Positions 17,486 to 60,715 of a stretch of 64,000 nucleotides of DNA are shown here, piece by piece. Source of the stretch: a virus (taxonomy: Duplodnaviria > Caudoviricetes). Location: positions 701 to 64,700 of the IMG/VR virus record IMGVR_UViG_3300049899_000550; one strand, written 5' to 3'. Under the pieces are notes generated by a model. It searched no databases and was not told the DNA's origin. It saw only the letters and a list, made by a program, of their open reading frames with translations. Both the position numbers and the translations under genes were made by a program. Within the stretch, counting starts at the first letter, position 1. Each line of letters starts with the position of its first letter.

Positions 17486-18406
17486 TTATATTCCTATAAA
17501 CCTTTCGAAATCGTATAACAAATCAGTTACAGCACGAGTTTCACTTAGCACCTGTCCTACTTTGTTTATTGCTGCTGTTTTCTTATCGCCTTTTGGCGTA
17601 CCAACTTCACCACTTTTAACAGATATCATACTTTTAAATACACCAACAATACGGTTGTTACTGCGTGGATTCTTTATAGACTTCTTTGCTTGTGCTAATA
17701 GAGTATCAAAGTCAGCGTCTACATTATATTTATATAATAGCTTCTTTAAATCAGCAAATGAATTAGATTGCCAAACAACTTCGCGCCCTGCTTGCTTATA
17801 AGTGCCGGGTTCGTAAGTAACTATTCTAAGTTCTAGTTTTACACTAGACAAGTTAAATTCGTATTCCTGATTTTCTTCTAACGGTGGTACATTTTTAATG
17901 CCCATACGCGCAAAAACTTCTTCGGGCTTTTCTTCTACAGTTGATACCTTTACTAGTCCTAGTATTAGTCCTTGTACTTCTGCTGGAAAGTCTAAGAAGC
18001 CACCTTTAAATTCTGCTTCTGTTGCTGTTAATGCAATAACGTTATCTACCTGTACACTATAGCCTAACTTTTTATCGTGATATCGAACAGTAATAATTTC
18101 GCCCGAATTATAATGTCTGCGTCCGACATACTTGGGTGAAGAGAATGGTACAATAACTGTGTCTGGTAACTGCGTTAGATATGCCGCTAATTCTGTTTTA
18201 AGTGTTTTCTTATCTAAGTCGGATTCAATATGTGTAATTAAATCAATGTCACCAAAGTCTTCTTTACTTTGGTCGCTGTTGTAACTGCCACTAGGAGCAA
18301 TACTAACAAAGCCCGGGAATTTTTTAATTACCTTTTCGTAACTTTTTAGGAATTGTTTAAAGTCCTTACGACTTTGTATACGGTCTGCACCGGTTACGCC
18401 TGACAT
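17486..18406 (-). CDS. Pol-beta-superfamily nucleotidyltransferase
   Basis: SGSY...DFGDIDL and VQVD triad. Confidence 0.7.
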   Translation of the reverse strand: MSGVTGADRIQSRKDFKQFLKSYEKVIKKFPGFVSIAPSGSYNSDQSKEDFGDIDLITHIESDLDKKTLKTELAAYLTQLPDTVIVPFSSPKYVGRRHYNSGEIITVRYHDKKLGYSVQVDNVIALTATEAEFKGGFLDFPAEVQGLILGLVKVSTVEEKPEEVFARMGIKNVPPLEENQEYEFNLSSVKLELRIVTYEPGTYKQAGREVVWQSNSFADLKKLLYKYNVDADFDTLLAQAKKSIKNPRSNNRIVGVFKSMISVKSGEVGTPKGDKKTAAINKVGQVLSETRAVTDLLYDFERFIGI

Positions 18407-19542
18407 TACGTTTTGTCCTCGGTGCGGTGTGATGCTAAGGCACTATTAGACGGAAGAAATTTACCTGTTAGTCCCAATCGTGTTTGATTAGTAATCCAGT
18501 AGTCTTGCATATCATCTGGAATGTCTGCACGTGTGCTTTCTAATATTTTTAAATAGATATCTAATATAGCATTGTAATCTTGTATAGGCAAGCTCTTTAA
18601 TATCTTGTGTAATTTATAATAATCTTCTACTTTCGCTTTTGTAAATGCTTTACCGTATGCGTCCGATAATATTTGTAATGCTGTTTTAGGATCGTGTGCT
18701 ACAATTTCACCGGTGCTTTTATCTTTAACACCATCTACGTGGCTAAACGAATAGCCTGCGTGGTTAAATGCTGCAAGCATTAATTGTGTACGATGTAATC
18801 CTTTTACGTTGCTGTCTGCTGGATACTCCGAAGAGTAATAAGAAAAATTGAGCCATCCTATGTTACCAATCATCCAATCAACTTGCACACCTGTATCTAA
18901 ATTAGTTCCTTCTGGATCATACTGTGGATACAGACCAAATATATTTCCGGCGCTTACTTTCTTTTCATCAGTGTGTAGATTTGGAGCATGTGCATTAATA
19001 TATACTGTAAGTTGTCTTAAAAACGCCTTAAGCATTATTTGTTCTGGTGTTGCTGTTCTAGCACGTTTTGCTATTTTTTCTGCTTCGGCTTTTACGGCCT
19101 TGGGATCTACGTTCCATTTAGCAATTGCTTCGTCGGACATTTCTTGATCTAGTATATCACCAACGTCTACACCTAAATCAATGTCACCGCTTATTGGCTT
19201 CTTACCTACAGAACCCAAAGGGTGAAAATGTGCTGTATCAAATATATTTGCTTTTTGCGGAAATACAGATTTTAATTCTGCGAAGTAATGTTCTAGTGTG
19301 GGTTCAATATTCTCGCGTTTAATAGCGTTAGTTTTACCTTTAAAAACATTACCACCTTCGTTAAGGGTTACACCAACAATAGTCTGTACTAGTTTCCAAG
19401 CTTCTTTGTTTTTCTTGCTGTTAACTAGTCTTTTAAAGTGTGCTTTTTGTGCAGGCGAGGCGGTTTTATAGAAGCTGTGTACTTCATGCATACCGATATT
19501 GCCCGGATAACTTATTTCAGTTGTGAATTCTTTTGCTCGCAT
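18406..19542 (-). CDS. Tagged two-module protein with a Pol-beta-superfamily nucleotidyltransferase domain
   Basis: MRAKEFTTE; second module begins after LNE; LGSVGKKPISGDIDL and VQVDWM. Confidence 0.7.
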   Translation of the reverse strand: MRAKEFTTEISYPGNIGMHEVHSFYKTASPAQKAHFKRLVNSKKNKEAWKLVQTIVGVTLNEGGNVFKGKTNAIKRENIEPTLEHYFAELKSVFPQKANIFDTAHFHPLGSVGKKPISGDIDLGVDVGDILDQEMSDEAIAKWNVDPKAVKAEAEKIAKRARTATPEQIMLKAFLRQLTVYINAHAPNLHTDEKKVSAGNIFGLYPQYDPEGTNLDTGVQVDWMIGNIGWLNFSYYSSEYPADSNVKGLHRTQLMLAAFNHAGYSFSHVDGVKDKSTGEIVAHDPKTALQILSDAYGKAFTKAKVEDYYKLHKILKSLPIQDYNAILDIYLKILESTRADIPDDMQDYWITNQTRLGLTGKFLPSNSALASHRTEDKT

Positions 19543-22130: not shown

Positions 22131-23135
22131 TCATCCGTATACCAAGCTATCTATTCTTTTATATTTAATATTAAATGCATTCATTAGCAGTTCTACTTCA
22201 CGTAAACATTCGCTACGTCCGCCACCTACAATGTATGCTCCGTTATAACGTTTTAGTTGTGCTACACTTGTCCAATTAACTGCTAAGTTATCGTCTGCGT
22301 ATTTGTCGTCCCACTCCGAACCTAAGAATTGTTCCATTGCATAACTGTAATCATCTTCTTCTGCAAATAACTCCCTGGAATCGGTTACCTTTTGTATGTA
22401 CATTTCTCTAATAGTTTTAATAATAGAGCCTTCGTCCATTCCACCATCCATCCAACAACGAAAGTAACCATAGCCCTTATCGTTAATTCTAAAACGTTGC
22501 CAATCAATTATATCGTCGGTGTCAACTTCAACATAATCATCATACTCTTCGTCGTATGTGTAACGTTCTTCTTCTGGGACAATAGTATTTTCCCAGTATA
22601 ACTGTATGTCGCTAACTGTATCTTCTGTTATACCTGTTTCTTCTGCGTTAACAAACATTAGCACAGGTCCTGTGTTTTTGTTAACAAATTTAATTATGCG
22701 TTCGCTTTTAGGAGTGTCGTATGCAGGTTGCACATCAACAACGATGATAGGATGATTAAGCCCCTCGTTGATTGCTTCTCTAACTATAGCAGAGGCCGGA
22801 ATATTGCCTCTGTAAATATGATAGCCCTCTGCTTGTCCAGTTGGTTGGAATGTTCTGTGGTTAAAATTAGGAAGTTTAGTTATATCAATTTTAACTGCAT
22901 CATTGCCTATCGGAGTAGGAGACAAATAAACCATATGCTTGAACATTTCGTTTTCTCTGTCTGATGCTGCATTTTGTTTATATGTGTATGCTGCTATGCC
23001 GCCATCGCTTGTAAATCCGCGATGCATCGGATTGTGATACCAATAACGTTGGACCGGATCACCATACGTTTTACTAGGATCTTTAGCATAAGGAATGTTA
23101 ACTGATTCGCTTAATATTACTTCTTTTATTCGCAT
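22131..23135 (-). CDS. Tagged two-module protein: ART-like domain plus isochorismatase/cysteine-hydrolase-like domain
   Basis: Start moved to MRIKEVILSE. Module 1: WYH...VYLS...YRGNIP. After INE: IIVVDVQP...VGGGRSECL. Confidence 0.55.
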   Translation of the reverse strand: MRIKEVILSESVNIPYAKDPSKTYGDPVQRYWYHNPMHRGFTSDGGIAAYTYKQNAASDRENEMFKHMVYLSPTPIGNDAVKIDITKLPNFNHRTFQPTGQAEGYHIYRGNIPASAIVREAINEGLNHPIIVVDVQPAYDTPKSERIIKFVNKNTGPVLMFVNAEETGITEDTVSDIQLYWENTIVPEEERYTYDEEYDDYVEVDTDDIIDWQRFRINDKGYGYFRCWMDGGMDEGSIIKTIREMYIQKVTDSRELFAEEDDYSYAMEQFLGSEWDDKYADDNLAVNWTSVAQLKRYNGAYIVGGGRSECLREVELLMNAFNIKYKRIDSLVYG

Positions 23136-24837: not shown

Positions 24838-26559
24838 TTATCTACCTGTGCTTACATCGCCTGCAGGTTCAATCATGTAGTTATTTAGATGTATAGTCAT
24901 CTCACCACCGTATTCAGGATGTGTGAATAATACTGAAACTGCATCGTTGTGTACATAAACAACCTTACCTACAAGTCCTTCATCTTCTATGCTGGAGACC
25001 ATTTGTCTCCACTTCATTGCTTCACCTGTGTAACCGGCGCCTCTTGCACTTTTATTAGCGTGAGCTTTTAAACCGTCTGGAGCAATTCTAACATTACTGC
25101 CTTTCTCGTAAGCATCATCCCATTCGTATTCGCTAAGTGATTCACCACCAGCGGTTCTACCCTTAGGTTGACCTGCGTCTCGTATTGCTTTCTTTAATAC
25201 TGTTGTATCGTTAGAACGTTTGCCTGCTGTTCGTGCCTTTGGCTGTCCTGCGTCACGTATCGCTTTCTTTAATACATCACTTCCTTCATCCATGTACCCT
25301 TCATCTCGAAGTTGTTGTAACAGTTTATCTGATGTTTCTTTTTCCCTACGTTTTAAACTTTGAAGTATACCGTAAGTGTCTGAGCTACCAAAGCCTTCAC
25401 CTTCTGGCCAATCGCCACACGTCCATACTACTTCTTCTGCGATGTCTTCGTAATCAAAGTCTGGATAATTGCTTTTAATTTGTCTTGCGACACTAACACA
25501 TAAATCCCATTGGTGATCTTCTAGCCCGCTAAATATTCTATCTTCAACTTCGGACATTTCTATATCATCTTCTTTTAATGGTTTCATAGGAATAACAGGA
25601 CCACGCTCGCTCTTCTTAGGACGAGGCTTTGGCATTTGATTGCCCCACTTATTAGTTTGATGACCCCAGTTACCTTCATCTAGTTTATTGCTGTAATATT
25701 CCCACATTGTTGATGAAATTTTTCTTAGATCTTGAATACTTCCGTAATCATCCATCTTAGTGGTTACTCTATAAATTTGTTTTGCCCATTTCTCCATCAT
25801 TCTAGATATTTTATTTTCGCTATCATCTAATAGAACGTCAGGCCCTTGCTTCTTCGCTTCTTTCTTTTTGTCTTTCATTGGACCTGCGCGACCACATTTG
25901 TTTGGATTCTTTTTCATGTCTGCTGCAACAGGATTAGTTTTCTTTGGTTGTTTAGTTTCTGCTACGCCGTTAGCTGCTGCCTGCGCTTCTGCGCCACTGT
26001 TGTGAATTTGGATTCCTACTGATTCAACATCGTCTTTAGTTTTACCATTAAAGCCCGAACCACCATCTTCATAATCTTCTACACTCCACCACCAGTTAAA
26101 ACTAGGAGTATATCCTTTATCGTTGTAAACGTGTAATTCAACTCCTGGATTTCTTTCTGGTCCTAATGCTTTAACCCAATAACCGTGCGTTACTTTTTTG
26201 CCTAATCTATTTAATTTAGGTATCGGATCGCCCATCATCTTATCAAATTCTGCGTTGATTGCTTCGTTTAAATCACTTGTCTTAATATCAAATTCTGCCG
26301 CTGCCGCTGCCGCATCCTGCCCAGTTTTTTTCATCCATTTCTCAGCCTTTTTGATAGCTCTTTCTTTTGATGCTTGTGCTCTTTTTACAGCGGCACCTGC
26401 AGTTTCACGTCCTTCGGATGTTTTCTTTTTCTTTTTCTTTGACTTTTTAGGTTGTTTGTAACTACCACCAAATAACAAACCTACGTTTGGTCCTGTTCCG
26501 CCTTGTGGAGTTGCTGCTATAGCGCCTACGGAATTCTCGCCTAATTCTGAAATTTTCAT
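24838..26559 (-). CDS. Tagged modular head-associated protein / putative polyprotein
   Basis: MKISELGE; alternating basic and acidic short modules separated by [ILV]-x-E-type junctions. Confidence 0.7.
   Translation of the reverse strand: MKISELGENSVGAIAATPQGGTGPNVGLLFGGSYKQPKKSKKKKKKTSEGRETAGAAVKRAQASKERAIKKAEKWMKKTGQDAAAAAAEFDIKTSDLNEAINAEFDKMMGDPIPKLNRLGKKVTHGYWVKALGPERNPGVELHVYNDKGYTPSFNWWWSVEDYEDGGSGFNGKTKDDVESVGIQIHNSGAEAQAAANGVAETKQPKKTNPVAADMKKNPNKCGRAGPMKDKKKEAKKQGPDVLLDDSENKISRMMEKWAKQIYRVTTKMDDYGSIQDLRKISSTMWEYYSNKLDEGNWGHQTNKWGNQMPKPRPKKSERGPVIPMKPLKEDDIEMSEVEDRIFSGLEDHQWDLCVSVARQIKSNYPDFDYEDIAEEVVWTCGDWPEGEGFGSSDTYGILQSLKRREKETSDKLLQQLRDEGYMDEGSDVLKKAIRDAGQPKARTAGKRSNDTTVLKKAIRDAGQPKGRTAGGESLSEYEWDDAYEKGSNVRIAPDGLKAHANKSARGAGYTGEAMKWRQMVSSIEDEGLVGKVVYVHNDAVSVLFTHPEYGGEMTIHLNNYMIEPAGDVSTGR
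25148..25275 (-). repeat. Internal 75-nt-period tandem duplication
   Basis: VLKKAIRDAGQPK(A/G)RTAG occurs twice, with synonymous differences. Confidence 0.9.
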
Positions 26560-26616
26560 GTTAAATCCTTAGTATAATATACGTACAATATTAAGTATTT
26601 ATGCAGAAACAATATC

Positions 26617-26645
26617 TTGACAAGCGATTAACAATATGCTATAAT
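26617..26645 (+). promoter_or_regulatory. Perfect consensus sigma70 promoter
   Basis: TTGACA-17 nt-TATAAT. Confidence 0.9.
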
Positions 26646-26672
26646 ATGTCATTAATCTCACAGAGAACACAT

Positions 26673-27107
26673 ATGATAAATCAAGTAATGGAAATAATCG
26701 AAACAGAATTAGTAGACTATATTGACGGACCGTTCGAAGGCGAAGATTATTGGACAGAAGACGATTTTATATACGTTGGAAATAAGAACTTTGTACTAGC
26801 CGCTAATATAATGCGTAAAGTAAATAACAGCGGTGATTTTAATAAACGTTTAGTAAAAATCCGTACCGCGGCAGATGTGATTACTTTAGGGTTCGATTCG
26901 TTGTTAGATGCAGAACCAGTATTTACAGTTAAAATTGGTCCTACTAAAGAAAAGACTATCGAGCTAAAAGAAAGCGAAGAAGGTCGTATTGTATTATATA
27001 TTAATAAAGAAAGAAGTTCAGCAACATTCAAAACGCTCAAAGCGAGCAAATCCTACATCAAAAAACTAGATAAAACTCTATGCAGCGAGGATGAGTTTAT
27101 TTCTTAA
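26673..27107 (+). CDS. Hypothetical protein (isolated plus-strand early gene)
   Basis: Start moved to ATG 26673, downstream of the promoter. Confidence 0.7.
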   Translation: MINQVMEIIETELVDYIDGPFEGEDYWTEDDFIYVGNKNFVLAANIMRKVNNSGDFNKRLVKIRTAADVITLGFDSLLDAEPVFTVKIGPTKEKTIELKESEEGRIVLYINKERSSATFKTLKASKSYIKKLDKTLCSEDEFIS

Positions 27108-29235
27108 GTTGTGCTGCTTTAGCGGCTACAGCATTTTCCACTTCATCAGGTAGAGCCTTGTTAACTGCATCGTTAACAGCGGCATCTACTTCTGCTGCAT
27201 CTACTTCTGCATCATCCTCGGCTTCTGCTTCTGCCGCTTGTGCATCTGCTTCTGATGGAATAGGTTCAGCTTCTGCTGCGCCGCCGCCGGTACTTGCAGT
27301 TGGTACAACAGGCTTATTAGATGGTTTAACAAACTCATACATATCTTGTTCTTCGCGCTTTTCTATCTCACCTTTTAGTTGACGTAGTTCGTACTGTGTT
27401 CTGTTTATCTCGTGCTGTATTGATTGCATTTTGTCTCGATAGTTGCTCTGTTTCGCTTGTCTATATTGACTCTTTAAATTGCCAAGTTCTTTCTTTAGCC
27501 GCTTCATTTCGTCTTTGTTTGATTCTTGGTTTGCCGCTTCGTCTGTACGTAAATCATCATCTATACCACGTGATTTAACTCCGCCCTTCTTACGTAACTT
27601 AGCAAGTTCTTTTAACGCATGGTCTATTTCGTTTATGTTCATTTTTAACTCTGCAAACCGTTTGGCAATATCTTGCCAATCGCTTGCTGTTGCTTGTTGT
27701 GCTCGCATAGACAAGTCTAATAGTTGACGTGTAGCACGTGACATACGGAATTTTAATTTGGCTGGGTTAGCATCGGTACCATGTATCATTGGATCCATTG
27801 CATCATCTGCATTTGGTTCAATTGGTGCCTCTTTTAATTTCACATCGTTCTTTCGTTTTATAGCAACTGGTGAGCGTGTTGTGACAATCTCTCTCATGTC
27901 TATTGCTTTGTCTGGTAAGTGTCGATCATTAATATAGCGAATACGATATTCGCCCTTGGCATTGGGTCCTACCCAACTTATAATTTTTTCACTAACATTA
28001 TCGTTGCTTGTTGCACGTTCTGTATGTACAGTACTATCCATATTGTCCCACATCGGGTCGTCGACACTGGTGGCACCAGGACCACCATATGAACCTGTTG
28101 CTAATATGCCAGCAAGTGCTAAGTTCGCTAGTCTGCCCTCTGCTATAAATTCTTCATGATCGTTAAAACCGCCTAAGTATTCAGATGCATACATTTTGCC
28201 CGGACGCACTTTAGTTGGGTAAGGTCCACCACCGCCAAAGTCTAAATTAAAATTAAGTTCAACATAACTAGGCTTTGTACCAGCTTCGTGTGGTTTCATA
28301 ATTGCTGAATATCTATTCTTTTCGGTGTTGTATGATAATGCTTTTAAGTAATAATCATCTGGTACTATATCGAAGTCTAATATACCATTTTGTAAGTAAT
28401 GCATATTATCTTCTGACCAATTATTTCCGTCAGATGAATGATGTGCTGCTAGCCTTTCTTTAGCATATGATGCTTCTTTTATATTGCCATTCATAGCATG
28501 ATAGATTGAAGTGGCAGAAACTGGTTTGCCTGTTCCGTCGCGGAATCTAAGTTTACTAGAATCTATTTTACCTTCGTGATATTTCTCATCGTAAGTAACA
28601 CCGTTCTTGCCCATTGATATATTATATACACGATCGCCTTCTTCTTGTATATCTGTAATTCTAAATTTACCTCTCTTATTTGGGAAACCAGAAACATAAA
28701 ATTTACTATCAGTCGTTTCGTTAAAGTTTTTAAACTCTTCTGCTAGACTTTCTTCTAAGCTTTTAACTGATTCCATCGGTACCGCGCTATAACGCATTCT
28801 GTAGTATTCTTTTTCGCCTGGACTTAATTGCTTGTTCATGCGCTTGGCTTTGTCTTTAGCTTCTTCGCGTGACATGCTTTTAGATACAATAGATCTGCCC
28901 TTACTATCTGTGTTACCCTTTTTAGAACCGATACTGCCGCCTTTTACTACAACCATGTACAACATGTCTTCTGACATTTCATGCAGTTCGCGCATGAAGT
29001 TTTCTGAATCGGGTTCGTCAACATCGTTGTTGTTATCTACTGCAACATCCCCATCAATTATTTCTTCATCATCGTCTTTATCAACTTTTACAATTTTACC
29101 GGCTTCGCCTACTAGCTTATTAATAAAGCCCTTGCCCTTCTTGGGCATATCGGTACCACGTGCATGATCGCCACGTTTTTGCTTTGGCTCCCCTGCAAAT
29201 TTATTCACTGCCTCTAAAAGTTTTTTCATGGTCAT
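27097..29235 (-). CDS. Tagged modular head-associated protein / putative polyprotein
   Basis: MTMKKLLEA; junctions LAE, FNE, IKE, IAE, LKE; Ala/Glu-rich C-terminus. Confidence 0.7.
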   Translation of the reverse strand: MTMKKLLEAVNKFAGEPKQKRGDHARGTDMPKKGKGFINKLVGEAGKIVKVDKDDDEEIIDGDVAVDNNNDVDEPDSENFMRELHEMSEDMLYMVVVKGGSIGSKKGNTDSKGRSIVSKSMSREEAKDKAKRMNKQLSPGEKEYYRMRYSAVPMESVKSLEESLAEEFKNFNETTDSKFYVSGFPNKRGKFRITDIQEEGDRVYNISMGKNGVTYDEKYHEGKIDSSKLRFRDGTGKPVSATSIYHAMNGNIKEASYAKERLAAHHSSDGNNWSEDNMHYLQNGILDFDIVPDDYYLKALSYNTEKNRYSAIMKPHEAGTKPSYVELNFNLDFGGGGPYPTKVRPGKMYASEYLGGFNDHEEFIAEGRLANLALAGILATGSYGGPGATSVDDPMWDNMDSTVHTERATSNDNVSEKIISWVGPNAKGEYRIRYINDRHLPDKAIDMREIVTTRSPVAIKRKNDVKLKEAPIEPNADDAMDPMIHGTDANPAKLKFRMSRATRQLLDLSMRAQQATASDWQDIAKRFAELKMNINEIDHALKELAKLRKKGGVKSRGIDDDLRTDEAANQESNKDEMKRLKKELGNLKSQYRQAKQSNYRDKMQSIQHEINRTQYELRQLKGEIEKREEQDMYEFVKPSNKPVVPTASTGGGAAEAEPIPSEADAQAAEAEAEDDAEVDAAEVDAAVNDAVNKALPDEVENAVAAKAAQLKK

Positions 29236-29244
29236 TGTCTCTGT

Positions 29245-29580
29245 TTATTGTGTATTTAGCAAAGCAAATGTAATGTCATATGCACTTGCCTTTGTAATTT
29301 TATAATCGCTAGCAACGAAATTTGTAATAATTAAATCAGCTAATCTAAATTTAGCTTGTGCTGGGTTTTTAAGTATTGGCACAAGTTTAATTGAATATTC
29401 CTTTGCCTCGCCGTCTAACCAAATATTTTCTGTTAATGGATTCTTACCCCATAACCATGCTCGCTCTGTTAGCAAATCGTGATTCGCATATATTCTATAT
29501 GCCGGCTTGATATAGTCTTTCTCAAATACCCAGTTTGGTTGTGCGCAATATACATTTACTTCAATGTTGATCTGAGGCAT
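29245..29580 (-). CDS. Hypothetical protein
   Basis: ORF track; tiles with neighbours. Confidence 0.6.
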   Translation of the reverse strand: MPQINIEVNVYCAQPNWVFEKDYIKPAYRIYANHDLLTERAWLWGKNPLTENIWLDGEAKEYSIKLVPILKNPAQAKFRLADLIITNFVASDYKITKASAYDITFALLNTQ

Positions 29581-30773
29581 CGTACCTCACTTAATACTTT
29601 TTGTAATGCTTCTAGTTTTAGTGCCTTCCGATTTAAAACATCTGTGCCCGGCCGTACATCGTTTGTCATTGACATTGAATAACGTGGATCCTTAGCTTGC
29701 TTTGCATTCTTAGCAATAACACCAACGCCAGCTGCATTTTCTCGCATTTCGTGCTTATCAGCAACTCTAAGATTGTCAGGGTAATTATCTGTATCTGTAA
29801 GATTGTCGATTTGTTGTTGTAAATTTTCAACATGATTTTCTAGCTTCATTTCAAGAGCACCTAACTGAGCAATACGCTCGTCGTCAGCCGCCTTTTCGTT
29901 ATCTAGTCTATCAATATCTTTTTTCTCGCGACTTATAATATATAATGTCAACGCTTCTTCTGGCGTACTTGCTTCTGGATGAGCAATTTGCGCCTTACGA
30001 TTCATTGCCATTACTAGTGCGTTAGTAGCTTTCTTAGAGTGTTCATTGGACCCGGTGTGCTTATGATCGTGATCATGTTCATCATCTTCTGGTCTGTCTT
30101 TTCTTTCGCCTGCTTCAAATATTTCATTAATATGCATTGCTGCTTCCTCGGTAGTTATTTTGGCTGTCATTAGTTTTTCAATACTTTTACTGTATTTGCC
30201 AAACAAGTCTGTAATAATTAATTTTTTAGTTTCTTCGTCTGCATCTGCAAACATAGCTCTTATTTCTGTCGCGCTATTTGCTGCATTACCTAATACAGTA
30301 AAATCCATAGTAGGTACGGTTGTTATGTAGGCATGTTTATCTGCTGTATGTGCTTCGCTTAAATCGTTTGGCATTGCTTGTAAATAAGCCGGACTGCCAT
30401 CTTTCTTTGGTTTAAATGTAAAGCGAGGATCATCTTCTGCCATATCCTTTTCACTTACTGCGAATAGCAATACCGTATTGTTTTTGTCTATTGTGTTAAC
30501 TAGCTCTAAGCTTTGATATGGTTGTTTAGATTGTAATACAGCACTTGGATTAATGCCTGTTAACTTCATCATTCTTTGTTTTTCTTTAAAGTTAAATGGA
30601 GATTTAGGAGGATCTACTTTGTCGCTTGTACTAATATACACGCTATCACTGCCATATTTTTGTACTAAATGATCGTAGACAGCTTTGTGGCCTTTGTGAA
30701 AGGGTTGAAAGCGTCCTGGATAAATTACAAGAACATTGTGTTGTAAAGCTTCGAATAGTTGTGTTAAAAACAT
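29556..30773 (-). CDS. Tagged HIGH-family nucleotidyltransferase (cytidylyl/NMN-adenylyltransferase-like) with C-terminal modules
   Basis: MFLTQLFE; PGRFQPFHKGH; SATEIR. Confidence 0.8.
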   Translation of the reverse strand: MFLTQLFEALQHNVLVIYPGRFQPFHKGHKAVYDHLVQKYGSDSVYISTSDKVDPPKSPFNFKEKQRMMKLTGINPSAVLQSKQPYQSLELVNTIDKNNTVLLFAVSEKDMAEDDPRFTFKPKKDGSPAYLQAMPNDLSEAHTADKHAYITTVPTMDFTVLGNAANSATEIRAMFADADEETKKLIITDLFGKYSKSIEKLMTAKITTEEAAMHINEIFEAGERKDRPEDDEHDHDHKHTGSNEHSKKATNALVMAMNRKAQIAHPEASTPEEALTLYIISREKKDIDRLDNEKAADDERIAQLGALEMKLENHVENLQQQIDNLTDTDNYPDNLRVADKHEMRENAAGVGVIAKNAKQAKDPRYSMSMTNDVRPGTDVLNRKALKLEALQKVLSEVRCLRSTLK

Positions 30774-35934: not shown

Positions 35935-36375
35935 TTAATTTGTTAAGGTGTCTTGTATGCTAGCCATCCATTCTTTCTGCGGGAGGCGCGCACTGTTCAT
36001 TGCATCAATTTCAACTACTTTTATAATATGGTCCGGGCTAATAAAACCATCTGCTCTCAATGCATCGCCTGCACCTGTCTTTAAATTAATATCGTCGGAT
36101 GGATCTGTGTGCCAGTCATCTGTTCTTGCAAACTTAACTATTGATATGGGTTTTTGGAATTGAAAGAACTGTTTTAATGACCATTTAAAAGCATCTTCAG
36201 GGTGGGCAAATGCAAACACGCCACCATCTGCGTTATAACGTTCGCCTTCTCCATTTGCCCAGTTACTTGTTTGTAACGGTAGCAAACCTTCCTTTGATAT
36301 TTTAGGAACATACTCCGAGAATGTAACGTGATATACTGCTTCTGTGCTTTCTCTTAAAAATTCTCTGCTTTGCAT
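35935..36375 (-). CDS. Tagged ADP-ribosyltransferase-fold protein, copy 2
   Basis: MQSREFLRE; VYHVT...ISKEGL...GVFAF. Confidence 0.6.
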   Translation of the reverse strand: MQSREFLRESTEAVYHVTFSEYVPKISKEGLLPLQTSNWANGEGERYNADGGVFAFAHPEDAFKWSLKQFFQFQKPISIVKFARTDDWHTDPSDDINLKTGAGDALRADGFISPDHIIKVVEIDAMNSARLPQKEWMASIQDTLTN

Positions 36376-36392
36376 ATTACCATATTATTCCT

Positions 36393-36842
36393 TTAATTTG
36401 TTAAGGTGTCTTGTATTTGAGTAAACCATTCTGCTTGCGAAATACCTAGCTCTTGCGGATTGCCTAGTTCATCAAAATTAACAACTTTAATTACATTTTC
36501 GGGACCAATAAAATCATCTGCTCTCAATGCATCGCCTGCGCCCATCTGTAAAGTAATATCGTCGGACGGATCTTTGTGCCAATCGTTAGTCCTTGTAAAC
36601 TTAACTATTGATACGGGTTTTTTAAATTGAAAGTTTTGATTGAAGGCCCATTTAAAAGCATCCATAGGATGTGCAAAAGCAAATACACCACCATCTGCAT
36701 TATAACGTTCGCCTTCGCCATTTGCCCAGTTGCTTGTTTGCAACGGTAGCAGACCTTTTTCTAGTATTGCAGGAACATGAGCAGAGAATGTAACGTGATA
36801 TACTGCTTCTGTGCTTTCTCTTAAAAATTCTCTGCTTTGCAT
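36393..36842 (-). CDS. Tagged ADP-ribosyltransferase-fold protein, copy 1
   Basis: Close paralog of the adjacent ORF. Confidence 0.6.
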   Translation of the reverse strand: MQSREFLRESTEAVYHVTFSAHVPAILEKGLLPLQTSNWANGEGERYNADGGVFAFAHPMDAFKWAFNQNFQFKKPVSIVKFTRTNDWHKDPSDDITLQMGAGDALRADDFIGPENVIKVVNFDELGNPQELGISQAEWFTQIQDTLTN

Positions 36843-59639: not shown

Positions 59640-60299
59640 CTAATCCCATAATCCGGTGAAATACTTGCCAAATAAGGTGAAGCCGTTTTGCATTCTTTTG
59701 TGATGTGCTGTCCATCCTTTCTTATCAAATACGTGTGTATCCTTAGGACCTTTATCCGTTCTAAAAAATTTAGCATCTTCTTTAGGGACTTCGTTGCCGT
59801 CTATATCAACTGGAGTATGAACAAAATCAATTACGCCTGTGTGGTACTGATCTTCCCAATCTGAGGTGTGCTGTTCAAACGCCCAAATCATTTCATCTAA
59901 TACCCAATCCCATCGTTTGAAAAATAGGTCGTCTGTTGCACCACAATCAATATCATCCTGTGATAATTTTGGTGCTGAGGTAGAACGTAGTTTTTTCGGC
60001 ACATCTTTGTCTGCTACACATGGCGAGCCATGTTTAGTTTCTTTGAGTTGTATAAGCATAGGGTGAATAATAAGTGCGAGCGTACTATCCATGCCCCAGG
60101 TATCATACTTGTCAATTTTAATATCAACTTTACGTTCTTTTATATCATACCGCCATGATAGGAATTTGTCTAGCCATGTGTCGCTTAACTTCTCTACTAA
60201 CCATTCCTTGCGTTCTTCCGAGACACCTACTTTGTCAAGTAAGTCGACAAGCTGGTAGATTCCCCACCAGTTACGATGAGGTCCTATTTTTATTTTCAT
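59640..60299 (-). CDS. Hypothetical protein
   Basis: 219-aa ORF: DTWGMDSTLALII...WDWVLDEMIWAF...LFGKYF. Confidence 0.75.
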   Translation of the reverse strand: MKIKIGPHRNWWGIYQLVDLLDKVGVSEERKEWLVEKLSDTWLDKFLSWRYDIKERKVDIKIDKYDTWGMDSTLALIIHPMLIQLKETKHGSPCVADKDVPKKLRSTSAPKLSQDDIDCGATDDLFFKRWDWVLDEMIWAFEQHTSDWEDQYHTGVIDFVHTPVDIDGNEVPKEDAKFFRTDKGPKDTHVFDKKGWTAHHKRMQNGFTLFGKYFTGLWD

Positions 60300-60715
60300 A
60301 ATTTATCCTCGTAAGGCATGTTTGGTTGTATCGAATCAATAGCATCTAGTTTATATTCAACTACACGATCGCATTCGTAGCGTCCGGTGCCACGGAAGCC
60401 ATAATTCACTTGTGCTTTCGCTTTGTATAATTCTTGCAATATTTTCCCGCAAGGCGAATCCATTAACTTTATTTTTGCGTATATTTTATTATTTTTAATG
60501 TATACACGTTTAACAATATGTGATACCCGATCGAGGTTAATAACATTTCCTGCTGGGTGTCCAAGCTCGCCTAGTTTAGTTTTGCGCTTATTGTACTCGT
60601 TTATAACTTGGTGTATGTTCACAATATCGTGACTGCATAGTACATGAACTGTTTTATGCTTTTTCCAGGAACAAAACCATTCTCTAATTCTTTCAAACAT
60701 TGCAAACAACATCAT
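60296..60715 (-). CDS. Prohead protease (T4 gp21-like) paralog lacking the catalytic Ser
   Basis: LGELGHP...INLDRVSH...KLMDSPCGKIL; NYGFRGTG replaces GVSSRGLG. Confidence 0.7.
   Translation of the reverse strand: MMLFAMFERIREWFCSWKKHKTVHVLCSHDIVNIHQVINEYNKRKTKLGELGHPAGNVINLDRVSHIVKRVYIKNNKIYAKIKLMDSPCGKILQELYKAKAQVNYGFRGTGRYECDRVVEYKLDAIDSIQPNMPYEDKL

Follow-up and report, generated by a model that had tools for sequence, protein, structure and literature searches.

This analysis concerns two long open reading frames (ORFs), P0001 and P0002, on the minus strand of a 64,000-nucleotide stretch of viral DNA (the window) that makes up almost all of the 64.7-kb IMG/VR contig IMGVR_UViG_3300049899_000550, whose completeness rating is 18%. 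The window has a GC content of 35–40%, carries nearly every gene on the minus strand, and encodes a T4-type family-B DNA polymerase, a clamp loader, a ClpA/B-like ATPase, DnaJ, GroEL/GroES and a 1435-aa fibre-like protein. Because of this gene content, and because the polymerase is 42–50% identical to its counterparts in the giant myoviruses Phosso, Atu_ph07 and Rak2-like phages, we conclude that the window is part of the genome of an uncultured T4-superfamily jumbo phage. P0001 (24838–26559, 573 aa) and P0002 (27097–29235, 712 aa) are open throughout, and exactly these proteins have been recorded from three and four contigs. A sequence-only reading of the DNA, made without database searches, had placed both ORFs correctly and proposed that they are polyproteins of small modules, delimited by hydrophobic-x-Glu motifs and cut apart by a gp21-type protease during head maturation; every motif that it listed is present in the sequence. 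On balance we favour a related interpretation, in which P0002, and less certainly P0001, would be precursor chains from a hypervariable cluster of tagged genes, loaded into the head and cut there into modules.

Pfam and PHROGs returned nothing usable for either protein and no head or scaffold family was matched, and a word-indexed search of 5.8 billion proteins (near the length of both, and at a shorter length for P0001 as well) found that they match only themselves. AlphaFold2 run without alignments gave mean predicted local distance difference test (pLDDT) scores of 39 and 41 for the two ORFs, at which domain limits are not readable; the sole confidently folded stretch was aa 563–634 of P0002, which forms long helices at pLDDT 86–94. 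An exhaustive HMMER search of 1.84 billion cluster representatives with P0002 produced 325 hits, and the best 150 were re-aligned. Each of the 325 hits is confined to one P0002 segment, and five segments have separate relatives. The alignment ends of about 150 relatives delimit a leader (aa 1–44), modules A (~90–157), B (174–254), C (265–366), D (367–~460) and E (470–562), a coiled coil, and a tail from residue 635. The features of P0002, from the N-terminus onwards, are as follows.

27097–29235, minus strand: P0002, 712 aa, with leader, modules A–E, coiled coil and acidic Ala-rich tail
29104–29235, minus strand: leader (aa 1–44), starts MTMKKLLE and ends VGE; common to the related protein P0003 and to 220–1100 aa ORFs of IMG/VR relatives
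28969–29103, minus strand: acidic spacer (aa 45–89), net charge -13, ends MSE
28717–28968, minus strand: module A (aa 90–173), core 90–157 GGSIG...SPGEKxYY plus a linker with LAE and FNE
28474–28716, minus strand: module B (aa 174–254), FYVSGF..., ends IKE
28138–28473, minus strand: module C (aa 255–366), ends EEFIAE; compare EEFINE then G in P0041
27829–28137, minus strand: module D (aa 367–469), hydrophobic Gly/Ala-rich start, ends LKE
27550–27828, minus strand: module E (aa 470–562), APIE...NPAKL...KGGxxSRGI, the most widespread module
27334–27549, minus strand: coiled-coil-like long helices (aa 563–634), ends MYE
27100–27333, minus strand: tail (aa 635–712), starts FVKPS, acidic and Ala-rich

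In relatives, modules A, B, D and E of P0002 were found alone or reordered, which bears on a check that the sequence-only reading had suggested. Module A occurs elsewhere as stand-alone proteins of 61–110 aa, and module B as stand-alone ORFs of 76–134 aa, some of them directly behind a MKxxE/D-I-x-E tag; the contigs with stand-alone A and B are about 1 kb long and carry little context. Module E, the source of most of the HMMER hits, likewise has a tag immediately before it in some stand-alone proteins. Modules A, B and E are absent from Pfam and PHROGs, and a search for solved structures with the profile of module E found no relative. The syntenic ortholog of P0002 on contig L002, P0003 (gene order lysozyme, DnaJ, Clp, glycosyltransferase, NMNAT-like gene, 111-aa ORF), resembles P0002 in three places only: the leader (57% identity), module E (67%) and the opening residues of the tail, whose start is conserved behind V/M-x-E both in P0003 and in the IMG/VR relatives. 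Genes of the P0002 type keep a fixed position, a conserved leader and a conserved tail around a freely variable middle, with lengths from 220 to 1100 aa. Among related phages the locus as a whole retains the tag and is otherwise hypervariable: the middles of P0002 and P0003 differ, and so do the downstream gene sets.

The joints between these segments share a motif. All seven homology-defined junction windows of P0002 contain [ILVMF]xE, with about 1.0–1.3 expected, and none of 200,000 random placements reached seven; for [ILV]xE alone the count is five of seven (p ~2e-4). These windows were drawn from alignment ends after the sites had already been seen, and some bias in the counts is possible. 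Among the boundaries that had been proposed for P0002 from the sequence, FNE, IKE, IAE and LKE were recovered as joints from independent homology data, and LAE dropped out, as it falls within the linker between A and B.

The same motif is held to closely in relatives. A scan of IMG/VR with a five-sequence alignment of module E returned 111 relatives, and 80 loci were kept. At the N-terminal joint of E, the Glu (P1) is present in 36 of 37 embedded copies among the HMMER representatives and in 54/54 distinct IMG/VR ORFs, and the hydrophobic position (P3) is L, V or I in 35/37 and 51/54 of these, respectively, with P2 and P4 freely variable. On the C-terminal side of E, a motif lies 14 residues away or less in 53/57 and 22/22 proteins that continue, and in none of 33 proteins that E terminates; 11 terminal copies end in IG, without exactly the Glu that is found after IG in continuing copies. 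Module D is preceded by Glu in all 30 copies (P3 being V or I in 28), and its C-terminal end is VKE in 17/17 continuing copies and in none of the three terminal ones. These counts support the view that the motif is part of the upstream module, at its C-terminus, regardless of what comes next, and is missing when that module ends the protein, as would be expected if selection keeps the P3 and P1 residues of a cleavage site.

Module order is permuted between relatives as well. The protein at locus L005 reads nucleotidyltransferase, VSE, D, IKE, E, IEE and a part denoted Z, and the protein at L020, nearly equal in length and built of the same four parts, reads nucleotidyltransferase, ISE, E, VEE, D, VKE, Z; at L073, module D stands apart as an ORF that has a tag of its own. 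Where relatives are compared, their similarity ends exactly behind the joint Glu. The proposal that modules are gained at such Glu sites is borne out by the P0002-type genes of L095 and L099, which are 92% identical and have as their sole large indel a 53-aa block between VNE and VKE; we read this as a direct case of module gain or loss at V-x-E joints, in relatives rather than in the window. The hydrophobic-x-Glu at the joints thus appears to be under selection and tied to the presence of a following module, a pattern that is otherwise hard to explain; a cleavage site for the Peptidase_S77 (S77) protease of the lineage would be its simplest reading.

Three observations belong beside individual modules. 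The start of module D, right after the joint Glu, is signal-peptide-like: in L005, L020 and L073 it consists of GWKSK, a 12–13 residue Ala/Gly/Leu core and A-x-A, and the window copy (27829–28137, minus strand) is more divergent, GRLANLALAGILATG. In P0083 (280 aa, a HMMER hit from another metagenomic phage), module B follows a tag-like start and is fused with a sigma-70 region 4 domain (Pfam E = 3e-17), which hints that chains may carry transcription factors. A short Cys/Trp motif, in the form CW-x-GY...G-x-K-x-K-G...VPNCVP or GYGRYWC...KKWK, recurs as a small module beside E in P0040, P0046, P0047, P0053 and P0074 and in the tails of L005 and L020; in P0053 it lies in a C-terminal part with matches to PHROGs of unknown function.

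P0001 can be resolved into modules at its start. Its features, again from the N-terminus, are these.

24838–26559, minus strand: P0001, 573 aa, tag and basic block 1, then orphan blocks whose charge alternates
26413–26559, minus strand: aa 1–49, tag MKISELGE and block 1 (Gly-rich, LFGGSYKQ, Lys run), ends TSE
25285–26412, minus strand: aa 50–425, five compositionally distinct blocks with net charges +3, -5, +8, +6 and -17
25129–25284, minus strand: aa 426–477, basic block with a tandem 25-aa duplication, flanked by MDE and LSE
24841–25128, minus strand: aa 478–573, possible small beta-barrel (KOW/SH3-like), a lead only

Block 1 with its tag is a stand-alone ORF in relatives (48 aa in L002, 58 aa in L076). 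An alignment scan with block 1 confirmed 35 IMG/VR loci, and in each of the 17 from which the ORF was extracted it is a separate ORF of 55–60 aa; since block 1 is a separate gene elsewhere, the TSE boundary would mark the end of an independent unit. An ORF with a P0002-type leader directly follows the block-1 ORF in nine of the 17 loci (L095–L101, L111 and L122) and in L002; in the window, block 1 is the N-terminus of P0001 and lies downstream of P0002, a local rearrangement. The whole of P0001 found no relatives in the IMG/VR and metagenome scans, and tblastn of P0001 against 1.4 Mb of related loci recovered block 1 only. Residues 478–573 have a weak structural match to KOW/SH3-like barrels in Atlas and PDB searches with a low-confidence Atlas model. 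The duplication that had been noticed at 25148–25275 was confirmed by a separate repeat search, having been missed by Tandem Repeats Finder: two 53-nt copies (25148–25200 and 25223–25275) are 81% identical and begin 75 nt apart, and they correspond to two 25-aa repeats in the protein. The blocks of P0001 carry net charges of +8, +3, -5, +8, +6, -17, +6 and -5 in order, and cuts at the motif sites separate charge only slightly better than random cuts do (p ~0.03). What finds support in P0001 is block 1, which alone among its blocks was recovered as a tagged stand-alone ORF, the tandem duplication and, weakly, the SH3-like end; the other boundaries are unsupported, and no relatives of the other blocks were found. 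Set beside viral polyproteins, P0002 shows both independent units (A, B, D and E, alone or reordered) and a motif at the joints (7/7 windows), and in P0001 block 1 is the only independent unit.

Both long ORFs belong to a run of tagged genes at about 17–31 kb in the window, with a further pair at 35.9–36.8 kb. The tag has the form M-K/R-x-x-E-hydrophobic-x-E, or is replaced by the 44–49 aa leaders of P0001 and P0002, and resembles in sequence the T4 capsid targeting sequence (CTS); the starts MKISELGE of P0001 and MTMKKLLE of P0002 both look like an N-terminal targeting peptide of about 10 aa with L/I-x-E. The strict tag pattern is found in six of 15 ORFs within 17–31 kb and in four of 52 elsewhere in the window (p = 0.006). 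Two other tagged genes of the run bear on the module reading.

18406–19542, minus strand: two-part tagged ORF, module 1 at aa 9–61 and domain 2 after LNE
29556–30773, minus strand: NMNAT-like nucleotidyltransferase, tagged, 405 aa, with a GRFQPFHKGH motif

In the first of these, the suggested switch of domain at LNE, before GGNVF, is matched in L002 and L003, where domain 2 is a stand-alone ORF that starts just before GGNVF; module 1 has been shuffled into other proteins. For the ORF at 22131, where a like switch at INE, before GLNHP, had been suggested, the loci examined contained no relative. The NMNAT-like enzyme is a separate gene in the window (two ORFs upstream of P0002) and in L002, and in most IMG/VR relatives it continues, across an [IVL]xE joint, into module E, often together with D and a Cys/Trp-rich tail.

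A candidate protease is present in this group of phages. Peptidase_S77 was found above the Pfam cut-off in four of five large related contigs (131–280 kb) and in Phosso, and in the related contigs a scaffold-like gene and a Gp23-family capsid gene adjoin the S77 gene. The S77 protease of the related contig L085, for instance, is a 210-aa ORF. The relatives' capsid protein keeps an L-x-E just before its conserved core, which we take to be the position of propeptide removal, as in T4 gp23. The scaffold-like protein encoded between the S77 and capsid genes (L088–L091) starts MLDIVKQLFE, much like the tags MLLNELFE and MKLLELFE of the proteins that join the NMNAT-like enzyme to module E. The T4 gp21 protease cuts after L/I-x-E, in many cases at a Glu-Ala bond, which was also the first to be mapped (PMC9026906), and the first 10 residues of T4 IPIII suffice for packaging (PMC9026906; PMC3012670). 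Processing in T4 is blocked when position 10 of the CTS is Asp (PMC9026906). In T4 gp22, gp67 and gp68, gp21 cuts at several sites and the fragments leave the head (PMC9026906).

In the mechanism that we propose, the tag or leader would attach the precursor to the scaffold core of the prohead during assembly, and a gp21-type (Peptidase_S77) prohead protease would cut after the Glu of hydrophobic-x-Glu, at the tag and at each joint, as the conservation of the motif suggests. Each module would become a separate peptide of ~40–165 aa; basic and folded pieces would remain with the DNA and be ejected into the next host, and acidic spacers and leaders may exit the head like scaffold fragments. With the P3 and P1 recognition residues at the C-terminus of every module, any one of them could precede any other, and such free placement would account for the reordering, the stand-alone forms and the insertions observed among relatives. 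The steps differ in strength. That some protease cuts the joints is probable; that this is an S77 protease acting inside the head is somewhat likelier than its opposite; and that the pieces are delivered cargo rather than waste is a tentative claim, finely poised and tilting slightly towards doubt.

The nearest known system is the set of T4 internal proteins, of which the chain system would be a variant, built on the same combination of CTS and gp21. Like IPI, IPII, IPIII and Alt, the genes here carry a short N-terminal tag ending in hydrophobic-x-Glu on otherwise unrelated proteins, form a set that is hypervariable between related phages, and occur in a lineage with an S77 protease; the fate we propose, judged here from sequence alone, is also the same, namely loading with the core, removal of the tag and ejection with the DNA (PMC9026906; PMC3012670). 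Unlike the T4 proteins, each of which is one unit trimmed solely of a terminal propeptide (of both ends in Alt), a precursor here is made of as many as eight or nine segments, each joint bearing a site, and between phages the segments are reshuffled, permuted or split into separate genes; the leaders of P0001 and P0002 are 44–49 aa long, against 10 aa in T4, and no sequence homology to any T4 internal protein was found. The core proteins gp22, gp67 and gp68, the source of the T4 'internal peptides', share with the present ORFs several gp21 cuts per polypeptide and coiled-coil and acidic regions; their fragments are mostly discarded and are not independent conserved domains, whereas the modules here are separate genes elsewhere, and no homology to P0001 or P0002 was detected.

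Giant phages of another lineage offer a looser parallel. The inner-body or ejection proteins of phiKZ, 201phi2-1 and SPN3US are cut after Glu at a short motif by gp175 or gp245, sometimes at several sites per propeptide (PMC9026906; see also PMC10052503). They resemble the present case in that many head-internal proteins of a giant phage are cut after Glu at a short motif; they differ in that the multiple sites remove propeptides and do not separate swappable modules, and in that the phage lineage is unrelated. The phiKZ-type cleavage motif is S/A/G-x-E, which differs in class from the joints here. Further afield, adenovirus core precursors (pVII, and pX to mu) are cut by the virion protease inside the particle and release small basic DNA-associated peptides, and RNA-virus polyproteins yield several functional units from one translation product, in fixed order and for the core replication machinery. 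Both rely on unrelated protease families, and here, unlike there, the order is free and the content accessory. We found no paper describing chains of swappable modules joined at prohead-protease sites, and among the papers listed by a literature search none combines 'polyprotein' with 'prohead protease'.

Several features of the data weigh against cleavage in the head. The window's only S77-like gene encodes a 139-aa paralog (60296–60715, minus strand; 18–20 bits) among small ORFs; compared with the related proteases it keeps GE-x-x-HP and INLDRVSH, has NYGFRG in place of the Ser motif GVSSRG and is shortened at both ends, and because of these changes it is probably inactive. The working protease and the head genes of this phage must then lie off the fragment, in the missing 80% of the genome. 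The tagged cluster sits amid replication and chaperone genes, with the DNA polymerase on one side and Clp/DnaJ on the other, and the T4 late-promoter box TATAAATA occurs eight times in the window, fewer than the 11 expected, and nowhere upstream of P0001 or P0002. The relatives that carry the modules are all uncultured: P0001, P0002 and modules A, B and E from relatives had no match by megablast or tblastn among 50,697 phage records, these searches found no cultured phage with any module, and Phosso, the nearest cultured relative by its polymerase, has no tagged cluster in the region beside that gene. On the side of the motif, the joint from E to the coiled coil in P0002 lacks a canonical site, motifs also occur inside modules (for example at P0002 residues 198, 416, 529, 536 and 543), where folding would have to protect them, and P3 is often Val and sometimes Met, Phe or Thr, against a T4 rule of only L/I-x-E in PMC9026906. 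The P0001 sites TSE, VAE and MDE do not fit that T4 rule either, the blocks at aa 50–425 had no homolog by any search route, and five or six further proposed boundaries in P0001 are unsupported. Finally, module E is single-copy in 5/5 genomes tested and forms, in most relatives, the C-terminal part of the tagged NMNAT-like enzyme; a conserved gene onto which modules have accreted hence describes P0002 better than a collection of free peptides would.

Four other explanations were weighed against cleavage of head-loaded chains. Proteins of the prohead core or scaffold type would also be targeted to the head and cut at these joints, for clearance and not for delivery of working peptides, and they too might show the long coiled-coil-like helices and strongly acidic stretches of P0002 (net -13 and -11), which are typical of scaffolds, and its fixed position with conserved leader and tail around a middle that varies within 220–1100 aa. 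The tag-like start of the relatives' scaffold protein and the cutting of T4 core proteins into several head-leaving fragments (PMC9026906) point the same way. We nevertheless regard this explanation as rather unlikely: the small units A, B, D and E are conserved and persist as genes in their own right in many phages, which speaks for individual functions, most relatives have module E joined to the NMNAT-like enzyme, and there is no sequence similarity to gp22, gp67, gp68 or any PHROG head family. The two ORFs might instead be ordinary multidomain proteins that stay uncut, the hydrophobic-x-Glu at the joints being a linker, a domain cap or a by-product of recombination and the N-terminal similarity having nothing to do with targeting. 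Most L-x-E sites in T4 proteins are not cut, and counts of [IL]xE are near chance here, with seven in P0001 against 4.0 expected (p ~0.10) and 10 in P0002 against 6.4 (p ~0.09). The conserved L/V/I-x-E before module E could also belong to the fold of E, forming a single conserved element with APIE, and enzymes such as NMNAT need not be virion proteins. Set against this, the Glu is lost exactly where a module ends the protein and present when anything follows, in three different modules; the motif goes with the upstream module regardless of the downstream partner; module order is permuted; and similarity between relatives ends exactly after the Glu. Uncut proteins consequently seem to us an improbable explanation.

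The joints could also be cut in the cytoplasm by another protease, either a host enzyme or the phage paralog, as a means of expressing early or middle proteins as polyproteins. The location of the cluster between the polymerase and Clp/DnaJ genes, the missing upstream late-promoter box and the S77-like paralog at 60296–60715 would all suit such a scheme. T4 internal-protein genes, however, also lie away from the head genes, the paralog is truncated and probably inactive, with its Ser motif NYGFRG against GVSSRG in relatives, and the tags are similar to the T4 CTS and the motif agrees with the specificity of S77 proteases; cytoplasmic cutting is accordingly very unlikely in our judgement. Least credible of all, to the point of being barely worth entertaining, is that the long ORFs are artefacts, that is, assembly or frameshift fusions of adjacent small genes. 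In its favour, the relatives examined have block 1 of P0001 as a small ORF by itself; against it, the exact proteins come from three and four contigs, chains of equal length but different module content are found in many independent assemblies, and the frames are open throughout.

Were P0002 and its relatives indeed head-loaded chains, many uncultured T4-type phages would be using the parts of the CTS and gp21 system as a plug-in arrangement, with one leader per chain of modules or enzymes, and cargo would be gained, lost and reordered by joining at a three-residue motif. This would explain the fast turnover of accessory cargo, would turn small domains that lack annotation, hundreds of them (A, B, D, E and others), into candidate injected proteins, and would provide a natural design rule for loading several proteins into T4-type capsids, which are already in use as delivery vehicles. 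A bolder extension, which we consider a long shot, is that the joint motif acts as a universal connector by which small genes are spliced into and out of a capsid-loaded chain, and that cutting also creates N-termini that switch on functions; for instance, an export signal of module D might be exposed only after cleavage in the head, and the piece, ejected in unfolded form, routed to the membrane or periplasm of the next host. The prohead protease would then be an activator and sorter of injected effectors as well.

Some smaller observations concern P0002 and its surroundings. Two matches were judged spurious for want of a Walker motif: a sub-threshold AAA_lid_9 hit, and a BLAST similarity between P0002 residues 361–437 and the clamp loader of the window, with E = 3e-5 when the two sequences were compared alone and 0.002 in a search of the window. 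Outside the main cluster, two adjacent tagged paralogs of 146 and 149 aa (35935–36375 and 36393–36842, minus strand) share the identical start MQSREFLRESTEAVYHVTF and had no Pfam match. Between P0001 and P0002, a 168-aa ORF lies on the plus strand (26601–27107) and overlaps the end of P0002 by 11 nt; as an ORF at the same place in L002 is 39% identical to it, it appears to be a real conserved gene.

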